A program made the position numbers and the translations under genes. Below, piece by piece: positions 9,816-60,277 of a stretch of 64,000 nucleotides of DNA. The notes under the pieces are model-generated. The model was given only the letters and a program-made list of their open reading frames with translations, had not been told where the DNA came from and made no database searches. This stretch comes from a plasmid: the sequence record CP132210.1. One strand, given 5' to 3'. Within the stretch, counting starts at the first letter, position 1. Each line of letters starts with the position of its first letter.

Positions 9816-11131
9816 AAAATGGCGACCACTATTGGGTAAGTGCTTATGTAACGCCAATAGCTAAGAATGGTTCGATTGTTGAATACCAGTCTGTAAGGAC
9901 CAAGCCTGAACCTGAGCAGGTTTTGGCTGCGGAAAAATTATATGCTCAATTGAGAAGCGGGAAGGCCGCGAGGCCGAAATTGGCTGCTAGCTTTTCCGTG
10001 AAAATACTCTTGCTCATATGGGGTAGTATTATATCAAGCGCAATGGCTGCCGGCATGCTTACTGATACATCAATAAGCAGCTTATTGTTAGCCACTTTAA
10101 TGTCAGGAAGCTTAAGCTCTGTTAGTGTTTTGGCTATTCTCTCTCCTCTTGGAAGACTGGTTGAAAGAGCCAGGAATATTTCCAATAACCCATTAAGTCA
10201 ATCCCTCTACACTGGGCGCACCGATGAGTTTGGCCAAATAGAGTTTGCTTTACGAATGATGCAAGCTGAAACAGGCGCCATAGTAGGTCGCATAGGTGAT
10301 GCATCAAATCGGCTTAGCGAACACACCCGAGGCCTACTAAAGGATATTGAGTCAAGCAATGTACTTACAGTTGAGCAGCAGGCAGAGACAGATCAAATAG
10401 CAACGGCAGTAAACCAAATGGTGGCAAGCATTCAAGAGGTTGCGAGCAATGCACAGCATGCTGCAGATGCGGCCGGAAGAGCAGACACTGAGACGGCATC
10501 TGGCCAGCGTCTGGTAGCCCACACAAGCCAGTCAATCACTGCCCTTGAAGGTGAAATTAGGCAAGCCACTCAGGTTATTCATGAGCTTGAAGGTCAAAGT
10601 AACGAGATATCAAAAGTTCTTGACGTTATACGAGGGATCGCCGAGCAAACGAATTTGTTGGCACTCAACGCAGCAATTGAGGCCGCGCGTGCTGGTGAGC
10701 AGGGGCGTGGTTTTGCTGTTGTCGCCGATGAGGTTCGCAGTCTTGCTGCTCGCACACAGCAATCGACAACGGATATTCAAAGCATGATCAGCGCTCTACA
10801 AGAGCGAGCGCAATCCGCTGTTACAGTCATGGAGCAAAGTAGTCGGCAAGCGCACACGAGTGTAGCTCACGCAGAGGAAGCAGCTACAGCTCTTGATGGA
10901 ATTGGCCAACGCGTTAACGAAATTACCGACATGAACGCGCAAATAGCGACTGCGGTCGAGCAGCAGGGAGCAGTAAGTGAAGACATAAACCGCAGTATTA
11001 TCAATATACGCGATGCTGCTGATACCAATGTACAGACCGGGCAGAATAATTTGCAAAGTGCGAAATCTGTCGCTCAGTTAACTAGCGCTCTGAGCGAACT
11101 GGCAAAACAGTTTTGGGAAAAACGAGGATAA
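9816..11131 (+). pseudogene. mcp: 5'-truncated methyl-accepting chemotaxis protein gene (Tn1721 orfI-like), cut by IS26
   Basis: ORF with HAMP and MCP signalling domain: ...[38 protein letters not shown]... Its N-terminal residues are read from IS26. A Tn1721-type 38-bp IR follows it. Confidence 0.8.
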
Positions 11132-16301: not shown

Positions 16302-18282
<1,981 letters not shown>

Positions 18283-49638: not shown

Positions 49639-50595
49639 ATGGCTAGAAAATTAGTTGAGTTTAACGATGTAGCGGCAGCAGCCCAAAAGCTCAAGGACGC
49701 CGGTAAACGCCCCACTGTCATCGCAATCAGGGACCTCCTTGGTAAGGGGAGCTTCACCACCATTTCGACATACCTCAAGCAGTGGTCAGAGGAACACTCT
49801 CTCGATGAAGAGCCGGTTGAGGTTGTCCTGCCAGAATCAGTTATGAGCGATGCAGAGCTATTCCTGCGGAAGATCTACACGGTAGCGAAAACAAGCGCCG
49901 ATGAGCAGCTTGAGCGCGAGCGTGAACAGCTACGACAGAGAGAGCTTGAGTACCAGGAAGACATGCAGCAAGCCGTGGACATGGCAAATGATGCCACCGA
50001 ACGGGCTGAACTACTGGAAGAGCAGCTTGAATCTCTCACCAACAAAAAAACAGAGCTCGATGCAGCCCTTGGTAAGGCAGAAAACTCGCTATCCCTCAAG
50101 TCTGCTGAGCTGGCCCGAGCACAGGATCGCTTGGAGCAGGCTGAAAGTGAAAATCGCTCTTTGAGCCAAAAATTGGCAACTACAGAGGGTGAGTTGGCAT
50201 TGCAAAAAGGCAAGAGTATAGAGCAGACAGAAAAGCTCCGGGCAGCTCAGGAACAAAGTACATCCCTAAAAGAACAGCTCGAAAATGCACAGGCCAAACT
50301 GGCCCAATCACAGGACTCCCTTGCCACGGCCAAAGCTCATGGCGAATCTGCTGAACGAGAGTGCCAGCGCCTATCTGGAGAGGTAGAAAAGCTGGAAACC
50401 AAACTGTCCAGCGCCGAAGCAGAAGCTCGCTCTCTTGTTCAAGACAAAGGCATGATCGCTGGTCAGTTGCAGGAAAAAGACCAGCAGGCCAAGAGCCTCG
50501 AACAAAGACTGACTGATGCGCTGACCAAAATTTCTGGGTTGGAGCAAGAGCGAATTAAAGCTGGTGGGGGAGAGAAAAAGAAAGAGGAAAACTGA
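49639..50595 (+). CDS. kfrA: KfrA-like plasmid protein (N-terminal DNA-binding domain plus long alanine-rich coiled coil)
   Basis: 318-aa ORF MARKLVEFNDVAAAAQKLKDAGKRPTVIAIRDLLGKGSFTTISTYLKQW... followed by heptad-repeat-rich sequence (EQLE..., AQ...LE...). A palindrome lies upstream. Confidence 0.65.
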   Translation: MARKLVEFNDVAAAAQKLKDAGKRPTVIAIRDLLGKGSFTTISTYLKQWSEEHSLDEEPVEVVLPESVMSDAELFLRKIYTVAKTSADEQLEREREQLRQRELEYQEDMQQAVDMANDATERAELLEEQLESLTNKKTELDAALGKAENSLSLKSAELARAQDRLEQAESENRSLSQKLATTEGELALQKGKSIEQTEKLRAAQEQSTSLKEQLENAQAKLAQSQDSLATAKAHGESAERECQRLSGEVEKLETKLSSAEAEARSLVQDKGMIAGQLQEKDQQAKSLEQRLTDALTKISGLEQERIKAGGGEKKKEEN

Positions 50596-50873: not shown

Positions 50874-52393
50874 GGGGCCTCATGAAGCAACTTCCTCGTG
50901 ACACACCAGAGCAATCGCTGATCACTCAGTACAAAGGATCTCGCCTTGTCGTTAAGGCCTATGCTGGCACGGGCAAAACCACCACACTGGTGAAATACGC
51001 TCATAACAACCTCGACTCTCGCATCCTCTATCTGGCATACAACCGGGCCATCCGCGATGAGGCCAGAGAAAAATTTCCTGCAAACGTTGACTGCAAAACG
51101 TCCCACCAGCTTGCCTACGCCACTATAGGAAGGGGCTACCATCACAAACTCACAGGCAACCTAAGACTCACCGATATTGCTCAAGCGGTTAATACCAAAA
51201 ACTGGACGTTTGCCAAAGATATTCTCGACACACTCAACGCCTTCATGTGCAGTGCAGATATGCGGATTCTTTATACGCATTTTGCTCGTGCCGATACAGG
51301 CAAGGTACTTACATCCAAACAGGAGAGATACCAAATCCAGGTAGTCGAAGGTGCAGAACTGATATGGAAGCGGATGACCAACCTTCAAGATCCGTTCCCG
51401 ACCGTACACGACTGCTACCTCAAACAGTATCAGCTCGGGATGCCGAATCTGTCTCGTCGGTACACCACCATTCTTTTTGATGAGGCCCAAGACGCCAACC
51501 CGGTCACAAGCAGCATCGTCCTACAGCAGAAATGCAAGGTAATCCTGGTTGGAGATCGCCACCAGCAGATCTATAGGTTCAGAGGTGCAAACAACGCTCT
51601 TGATAGCAAAGAGCTCATGAACGCCGACCAACTCTATCTCACGCATAGCTTCCGCTTTGGCCCCAACGTGTCGCTGGTGGCAAACGCCCTTCTTGAACTC
51701 AAAGGCGAAACACGCCCTGTGGTTGGCCGGGGACCGGCAGATCAGGTAGTCATGTTCTTGCCTGGTGATGTCGGTCATCGCGCAATACTTCACCGAACCG
51801 TCATGGGTGTTATCGAGACAGCGCTCTCTGCGACTGAATCCGGATCACAAGTGTTTTGGGTTGGTGGCATCGACGCTTATCAGATCAATGAGCTCCAGGA
51901 TTTGTACTGGTTCTCGATGGCCGAGCCAGACCGTGTAAAAAACAAGAAGCTGCTTGATGAATATGAAGACTACTTTGAGTATCAAGAAGTAGCGAAGGCC
52001 ACCAAAGATCCTGAGATGATGAGGGCCGTCAAGATCATCAATAGCTATGATGAAATCCCTGAGCGCCTCACCACTCTTCGACGTAATACAGTCAAAGAAG
52101 AATTTGGGGCCGACATTACAGTCTCAACAGCTCATCGGTGCAAGGGGTTAGAGTGGGACTTTGTTCAGCTCTATGACGATTTTCCGGATGTCCTGGACCC
52201 GGAGCTCGACCCAATGGCCCGAGACGATGAAATAAACCTGCTCTACGTCGCATCCACAAGAGCGATGCGAATCCTCGCGTTAAATAGCGCGGTTGAGATG
52301 GTTATCCGCTATATCACCCAAAAGCGCATGGTCGAGAAGCAGATGAAGATGGCCGCAATGGCAACAGAAGTTGAAGGGAACACGACCAAATAG
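50861..52393 (+). CDS. Superfamily 1 UvrD/PcrA-like DNA helicase
   Basis: 510-aa ORF with Walker A (AYAGTGKTTTL), motifs II-VI (ILFDEAQD, THSFRFG..., STAHRCKGLEWDFV, LLYVASTRA). Confidence 0.8.
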   Translation: MLVVGGLMKQLPRDTPEQSLITQYKGSRLVVKAYAGTGKTTTLVKYAHNNLDSRILYLAYNRAIRDEAREKFPANVDCKTSHQLAYATIGRGYHHKLTGNLRLTDIAQAVNTKNWTFAKDILDTLNAFMCSADMRILYTHFARADTGKVLTSKQERYQIQVVEGAELIWKRMTNLQDPFPTVHDCYLKQYQLGMPNLSRRYTTILFDEAQDANPVTSSIVLQQKCKVILVGDRHQQIYRFRGANNALDSKELMNADQLYLTHSFRFGPNVSLVANALLELKGETRPVVGRGPADQVVMFLPGDVGHRAILHRTVMGVIETALSATESGSQVFWVGGIDAYQINELQDLYWFSMAEPDRVKNKKLLDEYEDYFEYQEVAKATKDPEMMRAVKIINSYDEIPERLTTLRRNTVKEEFGADITVSTAHRCKGLEWDFVQLYDDFPDVLDPELDPMARDDEINLLYVASTRAMRILALNSAVEMVIRYITQKRMVEKQMKMAAMATEVEGNTTK

Positions 52394-52404
52394 TTTGGTC
52401 AATT

Positions 52405-52422
52405 CTTTCACATGTGAAAGTT
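52405..52422. promoter_or_regulatory. Palindromic operator-like site CTTTCACATGTGAAAGTT overlapping a TTGACA -35 hexamer upstream of traF
   Basis: Perfect 16-bp palindrome. A second copy lies at 59094..59111 upstream of the Ner-like/FlhC-like operon. Confidence 0.5.
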
Positions 52423-52503
52423 GACAAATAAAACGCTCAAAGCGCCCTAAATGGGCGCTTACACCTGCCTAATTTCACGCCGCCCACCTCTACCATATCG
52501 AGC

Positions 52504-53544
52504 ATGGGAAAATACGTGCGTGAGACTATGAAAAGATCACCTTTGGATTTACTGCTCCTTGCAGCGCTCACGCTAGGGGCATCACACCAGGCTTGGGCTC
52601 AAGATGGCACAAGATCTGGCTTTTATGAGCGCAAAGAAGAGGGTTGGTTCTGGTACAAGGAAGAACCAAAAGAGCCGGAGAAGAAGCCAGAAAAGCCCAA
52701 ACCAAAGCCTGTGCCAGAGGCGAAGCTAACACCGCCGCTGCCTGCTGCTCCGCTACCAAGCGGTCCAGAAATGTTTTCGGCAGAATGGTTCCGGGAAAAC
52801 TTACCCAAGTACAAAGACCTTGCCTGGGACAATCCTACCGTTGAAAACGTCAGGACGTTTCTCTACTTGCAGAGATTTGCGATAGATCGCTCTGAACAGT
52901 TTTCCGATGCTACAGAGCTGGCGGTTGTGGGTGATCCGTTCCTGGATGAGATCACTCGACGTCCTGCGGCCACATTTGCCTCACAACAGGTTGATCGTGA
53001 CGCCGGTAATGCCAAAAACAAGCTGCTAAAAAGCGTAGCCGACCGAGTGGGAATATTCTTCTTCTACAAGTCCGACGATGAATACAGTGACTTGCAAGCA
53101 CCGCTAATCAAGATGCTTGAACAAGGAGAAGGCTTCTCGATCATTCCAGTTTCTATGGACGGCAAACCTCTCCCGAACGGGCTTTTCCCCCACTACAAGA
53201 CCGATGAAGGCCATGCCAAACAACTTGGCATTGTGACCTTCCCTGCTGTTTACCTCGCATCTCCAGACGGTCAGTTCGCACCTATAGGACAAGGACCAAT
53301 GTCTCTTCCTGAGTTGAATCACAGGATTTTGGTCGCCGCAAAACGCAACGGCTGGGTCACAGACGAAGAGTTCAATCGTACACGCCCGGTACTCAACCTA
53401 GAAAACAACATAGCCGAACGCTTGGCCTCACCAGAGCTGGGCTCTGACCTCAAACAGTTATCCCAAGCGAGCGGTGATAAAGACAACTTTGTGCCACCGG
53501 AGCAACTCATGAAGTACATCCGGGAAAAATTACAGGAGAACTAA
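52504..53544 (+). CDS. traF: F-type conjugative transfer protein TraF (thioredoxin-fold pilus assembly protein)
   Basis: 346-aa ORF with a signal peptide and a Pro/Lys-rich linker. Position is upstream of traH-traG, as in IncA/C and SXT transfer regions. Confidence 0.7.
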   Translation: MGKYVRETMKRSPLDLLLLAALTLGASHQAWAQDGTRSGFYERKEEGWFWYKEEPKEPEKKPEKPKPKPVPEAKLTPPLPAAPLPSGPEMFSAEWFRENLPKYKDLAWDNPTVENVRTFLYLQRFAIDRSEQFSDATELAVVGDPFLDEITRRPAATFASQQVDRDAGNAKNKLLKSVADRVGIFFFYKSDDEYSDLQAPLIKMLEQGEGFSIIPVSMDGKPLPNGLFPHYKTDEGHAKQLGIVTFPAVYLASPDGQFAPIGQGPMSLPELNHRILVAAKRNGWVTDEEFNRTRPVLNLENNIAERLASPELGSDLKQLSQASGDKDNFVPPEQLMKYIREKLQEN

Positions 53545-53545
53545 G

Positions 53546-54979
53546 ATGGTCACGCACAAGACTGTAAAAAGGAGCCTGCTTGCCCTGAGTGTAGCGGCTA
53601 CTCTCTTCATCGCCCCGACAGAGGCAATAGCCGCTAACGGACTCCAGTCTCAGATGGATAAACTCTTCAATGAGATGAGCAACACAACACCACCAGGAGT
53701 TTATGAAAGCCAACGGCGTGGCGTTCTAGCTGGTGGCCGGTTCACTGCCAAGACTCGACTCTTTGACGAGAACCTAGTTAGCCTTGCCCCACCATCGTGG
53801 AAAGCTGGTTGTGGGGGCGTCGATCTGTTCGGCGGCTCTCTTTCCTTCATTAACGCAGATCAAATTGTCCAGCTCCTCCGGGCTGTCGCAGCAAACGCCA
53901 AGGGATATGCCTTCCAGCTTGCGCTCGACAACGTTTTTCCGGACGGAGCCAAGTGGATAGAGAACTTCCAGAAGAAAGTACAAGCGCTCAACCAACATCT
54001 GGGCAATTCCTGCCAGCTCGCTCAAGGTTTCGTGAACGACCTAACCAGTGGCATGGATCTCAAACACAAAACTGATGCTTCCATCACCGCTACAACATCC
54101 GGCCTGTATGAAGATTTCTTCGGATCCAAGCAGGAAACCAGTGGCAAGAGTCCCCTAGAGGAACTGAAAGCTAACAAGCCTGACGAATACAACAAGATGA
54201 TTGGCAACATCGTCTGGAAGCAACTCAAGAGCAACAACGCCAATACTTGGTTTCAATACGGGGATAACACGCTGCTTGAAGCGATCATGTCTTTAACCGG
54301 CACAGTCATCATTGGTGATCTGGTAAACGACCCGAACTCAACCGGCTCGGGGGCGAAAACAACGCCTCTGACAACCTTACCAGGCAACAAGATCACCTTG
54401 TCAGACCTGATCTCGGGCGGTTCTGTTGAGATCTATTCATGTGATTCTGATACGACCAACTGCCTGAGTGCTGGCACCAGCAATAAAACTGTCGTGCTCA
54501 AAGGCATCAAGAACCAGATCACCGACATGCTGTTAGGAACCAGCTCTACACCGGGCGTCATCTACAAATACGCAACGAACTCTGGAACCTTAACCGATCC
54601 AGAAAAGGCCTTTGTTTCTAACCTCCCTGGAGGCATTGGCACCATCGTTCGTAACTTGTCTGTCCTTTCACAAGATGGCGCAAACCTGTTCGCAACAGAG
54701 TCATCGGGAGCGATTGCACTGACGATGATGTATAGCTTCTCGGAAGAGTTTTTCCGCGCAGCTCGCATTGCAATGGCTAATAGCAAGTCGCCCTACAAGA
54801 AAGAGGCGCTGGAGCTTCTCGCCCAATCGCAACAGCAAATCCGTGATGAATACACAATCTTGTCCTCTCAATATGGCGATCTATCAAGCCAGATTGAGAA
54901 ATACAACAACCTCCTGGACAACATCCGCAAGCAAAAATACATGCTCGCAACTTTGTCTAACCCTCCTAGCACGAACTAA
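53546..54979 (+). CDS. traH: F-type conjugative transfer protein TraH
   Basis: 477-aa secreted protein. Gene order traF-traH-traG. Confidence 0.7.
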   Translation: MVTHKTVKRSLLALSVAATLFIAPTEAIAANGLQSQMDKLFNEMSNTTPPGVYESQRRGVLAGGRFTAKTRLFDENLVSLAPPSWKAGCGGVDLFGGSLSFINADQIVQLLRAVAANAKGYAFQLALDNVFPDGAKWIENFQKKVQALNQHLGNSCQLAQGFVNDLTSGMDLKHKTDASITATTSGLYEDFFGSKQETSGKSPLEELKANKPDEYNKMIGNIVWKQLKSNNANTWFQYGDNTLLEAIMSLTGTVIIGDLVNDPNSTGSGAKTTPLTTLPGNKITLSDLISGGSVEIYSCDSDTTNCLSAGTSNKTVVLKGIKNQITDMLLGTSSTPGVIYKYATNSGTLTDPEKAFVSNLPGGIGTIVRNLSVLSQDGANLFATESSGAIALTMMYSFSEEFFRAARIAMANSKSPYKKEALELLAQSQQQIRDEYTILSSQYGDLSSQIEKYNNLLDNIRKQKYMLATLSNPPSTN

Positions 54980-54991
54980 GGGGCCATTGGA

Positions 54992-57900
54992 ATGGGAGCT
55001 TTTTCAATCCACTCTATCGGTGACTCTGCTTTTCTGGAGCAAATCCTGATTGCAGTATCAATGATCACCGGCACCGGAGACTTCGAGAAGATGGTCAGTA
55101 TTGGCCTGCTTCTTGGGATCTTGATGATCTGTATCCAGTCCGTCTTTCAAGGCGCGAAGCAAATCAATATCCAGCAAGTGCTGGTAGGTTGGATCATATA
55201 TGCCTGTTTCTTCGGCCCGACCACAACGGTGACTATCGAAGACGCTTACACAGGGCAGGTCCGAGTCGTCGCCAATGTGCCTATTGGAGTAGGCTTTGCT
55301 GGTGGTGTCATATCTAACGTGGGATACACCATCACCAATTTGTTTGAAACTGGATATGGCGTAATCGTACCCAATGTCACGGAAAGCCACTTCTCAGAAA
55401 CACTGAAACTTTTGAATGACGTTAGACGGCGGGCCTATGACACCGGGGTTTTCACTGCGCTTAACTCAGCAAATGGTGGCGGCTATGTTGACGTAAGACG
55501 TTCCTGGAACAATTACATCCGGGAATGCACATTAACCAAAGTTGATCTCAACCTAATGTCCCTTGATGAGTTGATGAATCGTTCAACCGACACGGCTTTG
55601 CGGTTCAACTCTCAGCTCTACGGAACCCGGTTGTATTTGTCCACATCCAACCCTGACGGCACTGACTACACATGTACCGATGGATGGGTGGCTATTAGCA
55701 CAGCAACTGCCAACCTAAGCAGCCCGGTTGTTGTTGATGCTCTAAACAGCCTGCTGGGTATTGACACATCAACCGGAGACAACGCTCTAACGAAGCTGAC
55801 TGATTCGCTTCAAGCGATGGGTGCCACAACCACCTCATCAATCGACTACCTGAAAGCCGCCGTTCTTGAGCCTCTCTATTATGAGGCCGCAGCAGGACGT
55901 TATCAGGACCTCCAGGACTATGGCTCTGCATTGATGATCAACCAAGCCATTCAGCAACGGAACACGCAGTGGGCCGCAGAACAGTCGATGTTCATGACCG
56001 TTGTCCGACCAATGCTGACATTCTTTGAGGGGTTCATTTACGCTATCACCCCGATCATTGCTTTTATTATCGTGATGGGCAGCTTCGGCATCCAGTTAGC
56101 CGGTAAATATGTACAAACCATCCTCTGGATTCAGCTATGGATGCCAGTCCTCTCAATTATCAACCTGTTTGTTCATACCGCCGCGTCAAATGAGATGTCT
56201 AGCCTCAGTGCTGGAGGTCTCAACTCCATGTACGCGCTTTCCTCAACTGGAGATGTGCTGCAACACTGGATTGCAACCGGCGGCATGTTGGCTGCGGCCA
56301 CTCCGGTAATTTCCCTGTTTATCGTTACAGGTAGCACTTATGCCTTCACCAGCTTGGCATCGAGAATAAGCGGTGCTGACCACGTTGACGAAAAGATGCA
56401 AACGCCAGATCTACTCAAGCAAGGTCCGGTTATGCAAAGTCAGCCAGCATACAATCACAACCAGTTTAGTGGTGCGATTGCGAACGGCGCAGAAAGCATG
56501 ATCAGCACCTTCTCGCTTGGCTCCACTCTGGCATCAGGTGTGAGCTCCGCACAGGCATTACAAAGCCAGAAATCGGAGGCCTTCCAAAGCACCCTCGGTC
56601 GAGGTTTTTCTGATGGAGTAAGTCAGGATCAAGCCTACTCAAGACTCTCCAATGTTGGGCGCAACGTTTCGTCTCAAAGCACAGCTCAGAGCCAATTGGT
56701 CAACCAACAAGCCAAGAACTTCATGGATAAGTTCCAAGTGGATGATAGCCACTCTGATGCGGTCAAAGGTGCTTTTGCCATGCAGGCTATGGGCACTCTC
56801 GATGCTGACGAAGCGGCTTCCATGCTTATGCCTATGGTTGGTAAGGTCAGGGCGGCAATGAAGGGGGCCGCTGGTATTAAATCAAACAGTACAGCACTTG
56901 TTCCTACTGGTGGTGATGGCGAATCAGGCGATGTGCTGGACATCAAAGCGCAGGCGAAGGGGGCAACAGAGTCCTCAGCTCAAGACTCCTCAAGCTGGTC
57001 AGCAAGCGATGTGTCTCAGTTCATGAAGGGTGTGAGTTATTCACAAACCGATAGCCAAGCGTTGACTAATCAATTGGCACAGGGTTTTAGTCGTTCCGGT
57101 AGCGAGTCGTTTAAGCAAACCTGGGGGGATAGCTTATCCCAGAACCTGTCCAAGTCGGCCTCTGAACTGGTGTCTGCATCCGACACCTTCACAACAATGA
57201 GCCAACTCCAGAATCAAATGGGCTCCATGACTAACACCGACTTTAAAACTCTCGGTGGTGCAGTGGCACAAACCCCTGAGGCCATGAATCAACTGAATGA
57301 CTATTTCCGAAATGCCGCGCCGCAGTCGGTTAAAGACGAGGCTGCTTCACTACAGCAAAGATACCAAGCCTACGGAATGTCGCCTCAGGTGGCTCAAGCA
57401 GCAGCTCGAATGACAGCAATGACCAACTCCAAAAACTATGATCCGGGTAAGGAGCTTGGCGGGTATCAAGCTGCACTACAGGCAATCAATACTGCGTCCG
57501 GGCGCAACGGATCCTTTAGTGGTGACGCCTACGGAAATAGCGGCATTGAAGGCCCGAATGTTCAAGGTCTACCAGGTCAGGTTCAAGGTGCTGTAGGCAG
57601 TGGACCTAATATCCCAACCGGATTCAGAGATAATGTGGCTGGGATGGCTGGAACTAATCCGGCATCCGAAGCAGGCCAGTTACCAACGAACAGCCCCCTT
57701 GTTCAAAATGAACATGCAGCAGGTACATCAGCTCTTCACAACCTGGCGCAGCAAACAGAGCGAAACGTAACTGCTCCCGAACTCAAAAAAGCACAAGATA
57801 ACCTCATTAACTCGCTTCCGGAGATGTCTTGGAGCGCTTCGGCATGGGGGGCGTGGGATAACTTCAGTGACAAGATGGGCCGCAGAGCTGAACAAGCAGG

Positions 57901-58597
57901 CGGGGCTCTCATTGCTGGTGGTCAGGCTGGCGCTGATGCGTTCTCACAAGCAATGGATCAAATGAGAACGATGACGCCTGAGCAACGCGACCAATTCGTC
58001 GCGGCAACTCAACGCGGCGATCAGGCAGTCAAAGAAGAGTTTGGCTGGGCCGGGGGCGCGATGGTTGGAATGGCTAAACTTGGCCGCAACGTCATGGGTG
58101 CTGCTGCAAGCGGCTATAGTGCAGCCAAAGAATGGTTAAGTGGTAAATCAGACCTATCAGAAGCCGCTAAAGGGATGAGCATGGAGGAACGCGGTGCGTT
58201 CTATGCAGCCGCGTTATCCTCTGCCGCAGAAGCCGGTGGTGGAGCAGCACAACAGTTTATGAACCAGTATGGCGATGAGTTCAAAGAGACAATGCAGTCA
58301 ATTGCTCAAAACCGCTATGGACTTACTCAAGGGCAAGCTGCTGTTTATGCTGAGTCTTTTGATACAAACGAAGGCCGCATGAACCAGGCAATTCAGAATC
58401 TGAAAATGGAATATGCAGAACGTAATCCGGATGGTTCACCGATGACGCAAGGTGGTCAGCCTGTTCTTTCTCAGCAAAACGAAGAGTTCGCTGACAAGCT
58501 GGTAAACGTATTGCAGAACTCGACGGGAGCTGGAGACCGTTCGGGGAGTTATTTGACTGCTGTCAGAGGGTACAACATAGCAAATCAAAGGTTCTAA
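54992..58597 (+). CDS. traG: F-type mating-pair stabilisation/entry-exclusion target protein TraG (1201 aa)
   Basis: N-terminal polytopic membrane domain and a long Gln/Ala/Ser-rich periplasmic C-terminal domain, of the size and architecture of SXT/IncA/C TraG. Confidence 0.75.
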   Translation: MGAFSIHSIGDSAFLEQILIAVSMITGTGDFEKMVSIGLLLGILMICIQSVFQGAKQINIQQVLVGWIIYACFFGPTTTVTIEDAYTGQVRVVANVPIGVGFAGGVISNVGYTITNLFETGYGVIVPNVTESHFSETLKLLNDVRRRAYDTGVFTALNSANGGGYVDVRRSWNNYIRECTLTKVDLNLMSLDELMNRSTDTALRFNSQLYGTRLYLSTSNPDGTDYTCTDGWVAISTATANLSSPVVVDALNSLLGIDTSTGDNALTKLTDSLQAMGATTTSSIDYLKAAVLEPLYYEAAAGRYQDLQDYGSALMINQAIQQRNTQWAAEQSMFMTVVRPMLTFFEGFIYAITPIIAFIIVMGSFGIQLAGKYVQTILWIQLWMPVLSIINLFVHTAASNEMSSLSAGGLNSMYALSSTGDVLQHWIATGGMLAAATPVISLFIVTGSTYAFTSLASRISGADHVDEKMQTPDLLKQGPVMQSQPAYNHNQFSGAIANGAESMISTFSLGSTLASGVSSAQALQSQKSEAFQSTLGRGFSDGVSQDQAYSRLSNVGRNVSSQSTAQSQLVNQQAKNFMDKFQVDDSHSDAVKGAFAMQAMGTLDADEAASMLMPMVGKVRAAMKGAAGIKSNSTALVPTGGDGESGDVLDIKAQAKGATESSAQDSSSWSASDVSQFMKGVSYSQTDSQALTNQLAQGFSRSGSESFKQTWGDSLSQNLSKSASELVSASDTFTTMSQLQNQMGSMTNTDFKTLGGAVAQTPEAMNQLNDYFRNAAPQSVKDEAASLQQRYQAYGMSPQVAQAAARMTAMTNSKNYDPGKELGGYQAALQAINTASGRNGSFSGDAYGNSGIEGPNVQGLPGQVQGAVGSGPNIPTGFRDNVAGMAGTNPASEAGQLPTNSPLVQNEHAAGTSALHNLAQQTERNVTAPELKKAQDNLINSLPEMSWSASAWGAWDNFSDKMGRRAEQAGGALIAGGQAGADAFSQAMDQMRTMTPEQRDQFVAATQRGDQAVKEEFGWAGGAMVGMAKLGRNVMGAAASGYSAAKEWLSGKSDLSEAAKGMSMEERGAFYAAALSSAAEAGGGAAQQFMNQYGDEFKETMQSIAQNRYGLTQGQAAVYAESFDTNEGRMNQAIQNLKMEYAERNPDGSPMTQGGQPVLSQQNEEFADKLVNVLQNSTGAGDRSGSYLTAVRGYNIANQRF

Positions 58598-58611
58598 AAG
58601 ACCGTTCAAAT

Positions 58612-58639
58612 AATAAGGGGGCCATCAGGCCCCCTTATT
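58612..58639. terminator. Bidirectional intrinsic terminator hairpin between the convergent traG and eex-like genes
   Basis: AATAAGGGGGCC-atca-GGCCCCCTTATT gives a 12-bp perfect stem. Confidence 0.6.
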
Positions 58640-58997
58640 CGTCTCCAGTCCCAATATGGTAGCGCTGGTCAAAATCATAGGAGTTTTGAAATCCACCAGC
58701 ATGTTTTTTTCTGTGCCGAATTGGCGGAGCTTCTTTATATGCTGACCGCGCAGCACCGATAAACCATGTTAGCCCAAACAGAGCCCCGACAGCCAAAGCA
58801 ACTTGCCACTGGAAGTAAGCGATCCCTCCCCAGAAGATAACAGCAGCCCAAATACTTCTGTGAATGAAAAACAGGAAACGAGCCCCCCAAACGGCGAAAG
58901 GAGCCAGGGCAACACCAAGCCCCCAAGGTGTATCAGCCATCATAGCGACCCCTAGAAGCACAACACCCAGCAGAAGAATATTGACCACATGTTTCAT
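58635..58997 (-). CDS. eex: Small inner-membrane protein, putative entry-exclusion protein (Eex-like)
   Basis: 120 aa with 3-4 transmembrane helices. Convergent and adjacent to traG, as eex is in SXT/IncA/C. Confidence 0.45.
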   Translation of the reverse strand: MKHVVNILLLGVVLLGVAMMADTPWGLGVALAPFAVWGARFLFFIHRSIWAAVIFWGGIAYFQWQVALAVGALFGLTWFIGAARSAYKEAPPIRHRKKHAGGFQNSYDFDQRYHIGTGDE

Positions 58998-59093
58998 ACC
59001 ATCCCCCTTATTATTTACCTCCAGTCTACCACGGCATCAAAAAATGCAACCGTGAATGTTCGTCGATTTTTATGGTGAAAGTTTGCTCTTAAA

Positions 59094-59111
59094 CTTTCAC
59101 ATGTGAAAGTT
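59094..59111. promoter_or_regulatory. Second copy of the CTTTCACATGTGAAAGTT palindrome, nested with GTGAAAGTTT-6-AAACTTTCAC
   Basis: Same 16-bp palindrome as at 52405, preceded by an overlapping 10-bp inverted repeat. Confidence 0.5.
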
Positions 59112-59681
59112 AGCCAGTGCGTAATAGGGCATTTGTTGACAAAGCATTACATAGTTGAACACGTCAATCAGATCGCATACACTATCAAATAGGCCATTGC
59201 TAACGCTTTGGTCCCTATCTGCAACACCGCAGAGTTACCTCCCCCAAATATCTCGCATTGTAAAAACCATCATCTTTGTGTGGTCGGGGCGCATCTTTGC
59301 CCACCCTACCCTCATCAGCTCCTGCTGTATTCGCAATTCCAGCCCTCGCTGTATACCCAAAACCACTTATACCTAAACGCTATTTACTTATCACAAAATA
59401 ACACACTTTCCGTGTGCTATTTCCGCCATTCATTTGGCGCACCTTCCATTTCTATCGAAAATCAATCGTATCCCTTTGATTCCTAAAAGTATTGTAACTT
59501 TGTTCTACCGGTACAAAGTTAAGTGTATGTTTTTAAAGGTTTTTTATTGTTGACAGCATCATTATTCGGGCTTATAAAGGCGCAAATTGTGTCAGTTTGT
59601 GACAATAAAAGAACTCTAAAAGCGTTCATTAAGTAACGCAGTTTTTGTACGGGCAATAACGCAGTTTAAAGGTGGCAAGAA

Positions 59682-59954
59682 ATGGACAAATGCCAGGTGA
59701 TAGACATCCCAAGCGACCTAGAAAAAAAACGCGAGTGGATCAAGTACAGGCTCAAGATCCAGGGTCTTTCTCTGGCCGCACTGGGCCGAAAACACAAAAC
59801 ATCTCGTCAGGTGGTGTCAACGGCACTCTACAAGCCCAGTCCACGCTGGGAGCATGAGATAGCGACAGCTTTGGGTATGAAGCCTTCTGAGATATGGCCG
59901 GAGCGGTACGACGAAGAACACGAAATACCCCTCAGACATAAGGAGGCAAGCTGA
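59682..59954 (+). CDS. Ner-like (Cro/C1-type) DNA-binding regulator (Acr1-like)
   Basis: MDKCQVIDIPSDLEKKREWIKYRLKIQGLSLAALGRKHKTSRQVVSTALYKPSPRWEHEIATALGMKPSEIWPERYDEE, with a Ner-family signature. First gene of an operon ending in an FlhC-like gene. Confidence 0.65.
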   Translation: MDKCQVIDIPSDLEKKREWIKYRLKIQGLSLAALGRKHKTSRQVVSTALYKPSPRWEHEIATALGMKPSEIWPERYDEEHEIPLRHKEAS

Positions 59955-60277
59955 TGAAGAACAAAGCCAAAGCGTTGGTTCTGTCTGCGGCAGTCCTGTC
60001 ATCAGCGGCCAATGGCATTGACCTGAGCGGAACCGTCTTCGACAAAGCGGCGAAAGCACATAACCTTGATCCTCTTCTGGTGTATTCGGTCGCACTGGCT
60101 GAATCTGCATCAGGGAGAGGTAATGGCTCTATAAGTCCTTGGCCTTGGACGCTGCGCGTTCCTGGACTCCCTTTCTATGCAAAGTCGGAAGACCAGGCAA
60201 AGGCTAAGCTCGCGGAGTTTCAGCGTTACGCATTTTACGCTGCGTTTTGCCCCGTGCATCATCGAAGAAATTCTTGA
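59954..60277 (+). CDS. Hypothetical protein in the position expected for the FlhD-like partner; has a signal-peptide-like N-terminus and an SLT-like motif
   Basis: MKNKAKALVLSAAVLSSAANG...LLVYSVALAESASG... It does not resemble FlhD/SetD. It may be truncated or frameshifted, and a 70-nt gap precedes the next gene. Confidence 0.35.
   Translation: MKNKAKALVLSAAVLSSAANGIDLSGTVFDKAAKAHNLDPLLVYSVALAESASGRGNGSISPWPWTLRVPGLPFYAKSEDQAKAKLAEFQRYAFYAAFCPVHHRRNS

Follow-up and report, generated by a model that had tools for sequence, protein, structure and literature searches.

We analysed a 64,000-nucleotide window of a plasmid (sequence record CP132210.1) in which a short palindrome occurs identically in two intergenic regions of the plasmid backbone. 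The window comprises a resistance island (position 1 to ~49000) and ~15 kb of A/C plasmid backbone (49064-64000), along which the gene order is kfrA-like, UvrD-like helicase, traF, traH, traG, eexC (minus strand), acr1, SLT transglycosylase, acaC, acr2, stbA and mobI. The first palindrome lies upstream of traF (52504-53544, plus strand), with which the traF-traH-traG operon opens. The second lies between eexC (58635-58997, minus strand) – an entry-exclusion gene and vcrx145 homologue, the two names having been equated previously (PMC11493245) – and acr1 (59682-59954, plus strand), which encodes a Ner-like (HTH_35) repressor and is the first gene of the acr1-SLT-acaD-acaC operon (PMC4207636). 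The products of acaC and acr2 are FlhC-like and H-NS-like, respectively. In megablast searches against plasmids, the IncA plasmid pR210-2-VIM (NZ_CP034084.1) matched the window at 100% identity and roughly 950 IncC plasmids matched it at ~91.6%; by this comparison, the window plasmid is of the IncA type. A reading made from the sequence alone (hereafter the sequence-only reading) had proposed that the two palindromes form a common operator for transfer genes and a master-regulator operon. We find instead that both palindromes are parS, and that they almost certainly serve as ParB loading sites of the plasmid's ParABS partition system.

Reading both regions confirmed that the palindrome, CTTTCACATGTGAAAGTT, is present at 52405-52422 and 59094-59111, as the sequence-only reading had claimed. 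Its 14-bp core, TTTCACATGTGAAA, occurs at only these two positions of the window when up to two mismatches are allowed, where 0.2 occurrences are expected by chance from shuffled sequence. A separate scan of the window for further copies of the core with up to three mismatches found none.

The same core has already been described. Kiss et al. (Nucleic Acids Res 2024, PMC10954446) identified it as parS in IncC and IncA plasmids, and defined the parS of the IncC parAB-053 partition system as a 22-bp inverted repeat with the 14-bp core invariant and AAAC/GTTT flanks. Purified ParB shifted the eexC-adjacent (R55_174/eexC) and parA-promoter copies in electrophoretic mobility shift assays (EMSAs), and binding was lost after a 4-bp insertion at the parS centre (PMC10954446). 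The right-hand G and T of the site were especially conserved and needed for ParB binding, and the bare 14-bp core was unbound – implying that the flanks matter (PMC10954446). Functionally, parS stabilised a replicon in a manner dependent on ParA and ParB and caused centromere-type incompatibility (PMC10954446). The same study counted 10-14 parS copies on each IncA plasmid and listed copies near R55_170/DNA helicase as well as R55_174/eexC. Because both window positions are orthologous in our alignment to the IncC plasmid pVCR94, the two palindromes correspond to these published helicase/traF and eexC copies. The identity of both palindromes as parS has thus been in print since 2024 and is not new.

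The wider distribution of the core agrees with this assignment. The complete plasmid pR210-2-VIM carries 12 exact cores, which falls within the published 10-14, and a whole-plasmid scan for core variants with one or two mismatches found none. One of the 12 precedes the parA start codon by 50 bp, seven are intergenic and five fall within coding regions. With this number of copies, the idea that the motif links only two loci is not supported. The sequence-only reading had held that random occurrence across the plasmid, including inside coding regions, would count against it; copies do occur elsewhere and inside genes, but their distribution is non-random.

Comparisons between lineages separate the core from its surroundings. 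The IncC plasmid pVCR94deltaX has 12 exact cores and one with a single mismatch; 12 of these 13 copies are orthologous in position to IncA copies, and the thirteenth, an exact core, is matched by none of them. Across the 12 orthologous IncA-IncC pairs, the core is identical at 167 of 168 positions and the 30-nt flanks at 560 of 720 (78%; Fisher P = 4e-15), showing, at the level of sequence conservation, that the core is under strong purifying selection. The eexC-acr1 spacer illustrates the pattern: parS stands there as a conserved island, whereas the sequence around it has diverged from pVCR94 and includes a 30-bp indel. In the Aeromonas veronii plasmid pHX3, which has ~71% DNA identity in this region and a ParB that is 62.5% identical, the core occurs in 15 exact copies, among them those that precede traF, the eex homologue and, at a distance of 50 bp, parA. 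The pHX3 cores are flanked by A5-6/T5-6 rather than AAAC/GTTT, and this change, together with the divergence of ParB, suggests that flank specificity co-evolved with ParB. At the traF-upstream and eex-upstream positions of pHX3 (10240-10266 and 16890-16920), the core sits within perfect palindromes of 26-30 bp. This conservation and the published EMSAs uphold one general element of the sequence-only reading – that the palindrome is a protein-binding site under selection, common to both intergenic regions.

We next describe each window copy in its local context. Site 1 (ATTC-TTTCACATGTGAAA-GTTG; 52402-52423, core 52406-52419) lies in the helicase-traF intergenic region, is orthologous to the IncC R55_170/helicase parS and is identical to it in the pVCR94 alignment; across the whole helicase-traF spacer, IncA and IncC agree at 98% identity. 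Site 1 keeps the core-adjacent C and G as well as the right-hand GT, and its left arm is weak, matching at one of four positions. Directly upstream of the site, a terminator-like hairpin (GACCAAATAGTTTGGTC, 52384-52400, plus strand) covers the helicase stop codon. Downstream lies the PtraF box for AcaCD, the FlhDC-like activator (Carraro et al. 2014, PMC4207636). We located this box (CAAAGCGCCCTAAATGGGCGCTTACACCT, 52438-52466, plus strand) by its alignment to the pVCR94 box at 109044-109072, which had been defined by chromatin immunoprecipitation with exonuclease digestion (ChIP-exo) and MAST, and by a match to a position weight matrix that we built from 19 published boxes and used to scan pVCR94, pR210-2-VIM and pHX3. 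The AcaCD box resembles parS in being palindromic and upstream of traF, but is of the GCCC-N5-GGGC type; it adjoins the palindrome without overlapping it, the parS core ending 18 nt upstream of the box. The palindrome has no match to the GCCC-N5-GGGC core, and the sequence-only reading was therefore right to distinguish it from the AcaCD box.

The position of site 1 relative to transcription can be estimated from pVCR94. Moving the start mapped there by 5' rapid amplification of cDNA ends (5'-RACE; 109108-109110) through the 98%-identical alignment would place the IncA traF transcription start at ~52502-52504 (plus strand) and the parS centre at ~-90. A TTGACA hexamer at 52421-52426 had been taken for a -35 element overlapped by the first palindrome. 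The overlap is real, amounting to two nucleotides at the 3' end of the palindrome, but we reject the promoter role, because the hexamer lies at ~-82 to -77 relative to the mapped start. It also lacks a -10 partner, sigma-70 promoter scans around both sites returned no promoter-like pair, and pHX3 has not retained the hexamer. A PtraF-lacZ fusion was silent without AcaCD and was activated by AcaCD alone in plasmid-free cells (PMC4207636); judging from the primers, the fused fragment covers parS. The transcription start transferred from pVCR94 falls on the annotated traF start codon (ATG 52504). Translation more probably begins at GTG 52516 or at ATG 52528, and from the latter it opens with MKRSPLDLLLL, which is signal-peptide-like.

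Site 2 (AAAC-TTTCACATGTGAAA-GTTA; 59091-59112, core 59095-59108) occupies the eexC-acr1 intergenic region and matches the EMSA-bound consensus 22-mer at 21 of 22 positions. Its core is ~98 bp upstream of the start codon of the divergent eexC (58997), and 574 bp separate the site from the acr1 ATG (59682) downstream. The second inverted repeat that the sequence-only reading had described as nested with this copy is present, with arms GTGAAAGTTT (59075-59084) and AAACTTTCAC (59091-59100) separated by 6 nt. It consists of an extra parS right half-site (GTGAAAGTTTGC, 59075-59086) and the left arm of site 2. The half-site is a 12-nt duplication of the right half and its flank, forming a direct repeat of GTGAAAGTTAGC (59103-59114) at a distance of 28 nt. 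It is found in IncA only, being absent from IncC (which reads ATTAGAATTTGC) and from pHX3, and may be an additional ParB half-site or a mere relic of duplication. The half-site adjoins the 30-bp indel relative to IncC. No AcaCD box was found near site 2.

The second copy had also been assigned to the promoter of the Ner-like/FlhC-like operon, which its location contradicts. A candidate sigma-70 promoter for the acr1 operon, TTGACA-N17-TATAAA (59550-59578, plus strand), lies ~440 bp downstream of site 2 and is conserved in IncC; we infer that this is likely to be Pacr1. Our promoter scan had passed over it because its -10 element ends in A. Just upstream of the candidate promoter is an inverted repeat, TAACTTTGT-N9-ACAAAGTTA (59495-59521), and downstream of it are two TAACGCAGTTT direct repeats that start at 59634 and 59657, 23 nt apart (59634-59667). 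Both features are kept in IncC, and both are plausibly better candidates for AcaB/Acr1 operators than the parS palindrome.

The expected binding protein is encoded on the closest complete plasmid. In pR210-2-VIM, ParA, a KorB-domain ParB and a helix-turn-helix protein are encoded together, by genes that lie outside the window. The IncA ParB contains ParB_N, HTH_ParB and KorB domains (Pfam KorB E = 4e-38) and a GERRWRA motif, is 90.6% identical to its IncC counterpart, and has KorB of plasmid RK2 as its closest solved relative (8qa8, E = 1.6e-20). We propose that a plasmid ParB dimer would recognise the 14-bp core along with the C/G and GT that flank it. The system would be a type Ia ParABS in which the palindromes act as centromere-like loading sites; the two window sites, as 2 of ~12 copies dispersed over the backbone, would contribute to jointly nucleating a ParB partition complex that ParA would then segregate. 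Two other proteins were considered as binders and set aside – the KfrA-like protein (encoded at 49639-50595) and the small helix-turn-helix protein '053'. We found no supporting evidence for either, and it is binding by ParB that has been published.

The likeness to the published IncC/IncA parS is close – the core is identical, the C and G next to it and the GT on its right are kept, and both genomic positions are the same. The IncA copies are distinguished from the IncC ones by site 2, which ends in GTTA rather than GTTT and has the extra half-site beside it. Several points nonetheless weigh against our assignment. ParB binding has been demonstrated for the IncC (R55) sites and not for the IncA copies. 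Site 1 has the poorer left flank (ATTC, not AAAC) and this copy was outside the published EMSA probes. The core needs its flanks to be bound, yet both sites keep the critical right-hand GT. In addition, parAB is outside the window, and we assume that this molecule carries it because the 100%-identical pR210-2-VIM does.

We weighed these points alongside other explanations of the repeat. One is that the palindrome binds nothing and arose either by chance or as a small repeat element, selfish or neutral. Perfect 14-bp palindromes of any kind are indeed not rare, with ~4 expected in 64 kb, but exact 18-mer pairs should number only ~0.06 in the same length and the shuffle expectation for this particular core is likewise low, at 0.2. 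Chance would also have to account for 12 exact copies on the plasmid without a single degenerate variant, for a core that is invariant in IncA, IncC and pHX3 despite diverging flanks, and for the published ParB binding and incompatibility phenotypes (PMC10954446). We give this idea practically no credence, the conservation data and the published EMSAs having already refuted it. The sequence-only reading favoured a different explanation, in which the Ner-like Acr1 or the H-NS-like Acr2 has its operator in the palindrome, with autoregulation of acr1-acaDC and co-repression of traF as the outcome. Both sites are intergenic and belong to the transfer and regulatory region, and Acr1 and Acr2 repress a Pacr1-lacZ fusion (PMC4207636) whose ~700-bp fragment, judging from the primers, contains site 2. 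However, since the reporter fragment includes parS, this repression cannot separate parS from Acr1 action, and site 2 is ~440 bp from the likely acr1 promoter, where the repeats at 59495-59521 and at 59634 and 59657 are better placed. A dedicated repressor also fits poorly with 12 plasmid copies, among them one near the parA promoter and others within coding regions, and with a PtraF that is silent without AcaCD rather than constitutively active and then repressed (PMC4207636). Moreover, ParB binds this very sequence in vitro (PMC10954446), and we consider a role as an Acr1 or Acr2 operator very improbable. H-NS-like proteins, for their part, need no strict palindrome.

A further possibility extends the parS assignment rather than replacing it. 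Both sites might also be KorB-type operators, at which ParB would damp transcription, or set its timing, for PtraF and the eexC/acr1 region. ParB bound at both sites, possibly as a CTP-dependent sliding clamp like KorB, may modulate the AcaCD-dependent PtraF and the eexC/acr1 region. RK2 KorB, the closest solved relative of this KorB-domain ParB, is loaded at parS as a CTP-dependent clamp and silences distant promoters (PMC11790492). The placement of parS is suggestive. A parS lies within 80 bp of an AcaCD box for 4 of 13 copies in IncC, 4 of 12 in IncA and 3 of 16 in pHX3, a clustering that permutation finds unlikely by chance (P ~2e-4, 5e-5 and 2e-3, respectively). Centre-to-centre distances between parS and the box are ~36-40 bp or ~64-70 bp across the three plasmids, and at traF, vcrx012, vcrx036 and vcrx068 parS is 30-70 bp upstream of the AcaCD box. 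In line with a dual role, the traF-upstream and eex-upstream copies are kept in the ~71%-identical pHX3, and 7 of the 12 IncA copies are intergenic – though intergenic placement may simply reflect avoidance of coding constraint. Kiss et al. noted traF as one of four AcaCD-regulated operons with parS just upstream, demonstrated autorepression by ParB at PparA, found that mutating a parS near an AcaCD box changes SGI1 copy control, and proposed a global-regulator role for ParB, stating that this work was ongoing (PMC10954446). Against a regulatory role, no effect of ParB on transcription of traF, eexC or acr1 has been reported, and our literature search found no paper on regulation by A/C-plasmid ParB later than PMC10954446. 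The parS-containing PtraF-lacZ fusion was also fully AcaCD-dependent and was activated by AcaCD alone without the plasmid (PMC4207636). ParB is thus not needed for PtraF activation, and any effect it has would be modulatory. On balance, we regard the dual role of the two window sites as a tentative proposal that stands somewhat short of even odds. The broader idea that A/C-family ParB is a KorB-like global regulator tuning the conjugation regulon, perhaps including acr1-acaDC – a role already proposed in PMC10954446 – seems to us similarly possible, if on present evidence rather doubtful.

The KorB operators (OB, TTTAGC(G/C)GCTAAA) of the IncP plasmids RK2 and RP4 are likewise ~12 dispersed, short, perfect palindromes, some overlapping promoters and others lying tens to hundreds of bp away, and their binder, too, belongs to the ParB family, has a KorB domain and doubles as the partition protein. 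The operator sequence differs, however, and A/C ParB is distant from RK2 KorB outside the N-terminal and helix-turn-helix regions, as reflected in the match to 8qa8. Regulation beyond parA autorepression is only proposed for the A/C protein, and no KorA or TrbA partner is known for it. The parS mimics DR1 and DR2 of SGI1 offer a second parallel; each is a 22-bp ParB site located 10-25 bp upstream of an AcaCD box, much as site 1 is located 14-18 nt upstream of its own. In contrast to the SGI1 copies, which sit on a chromosomal island and hijack the plasmid's ParB, the window sites are the plasmid's own.

Two further features of the backbone concern neighbouring genes. The kfrA-like gene (49639-50595), which encodes a KfrA_N-domain protein, lacks ~75 bp at ~50104-50113 relative to pR210-2-VIM; the gap falls in the coiled-coil repeat region and the reading frame is still open. 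At 60224/60225, exactly 750 bp are absent relative to the otherwise identical pR210-2-VIM (139633-140382). Lost in this gap are ~159 of the 202 acaD codons and the 3' part of the SLT gene, which encodes the C-terminal half of the transglycosylase; acaC is intact. The open reading frame at 59954-60277 is the SLT gene, truncated and frame-shifted by the gap. We found no microhomology at the junction, and the gap was found in none of the ~1000 A/C plasmids in PLSDB. Since acaD is essential (PMC4207636), the plasmid should not conjugate if the 750-bp deletion is genuine, and a conjugation-deficient plasmid would then be expected.

To published work, our analysis makes minor additions: it quantifies how core and flank conservation differ, shows for three lineages that parS is associated with AcaCD boxes, and describes the variant flanks of pHX3 and the IncA-only half-site. 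Recognizing the palindromes as parS keeps them from being wrongly annotated as an operator of conjugation. Plasmids of the IncA and IncC types are major vehicles of carbapenemase and multidrug resistance genes, and SGI1-type islands mimic parS, hijacking partition and leading to expulsion of the helper plasmid. If ParB does regulate the conjugation regulon from these sites, the partition or copy state of the plasmid would be coupled to its transfer.

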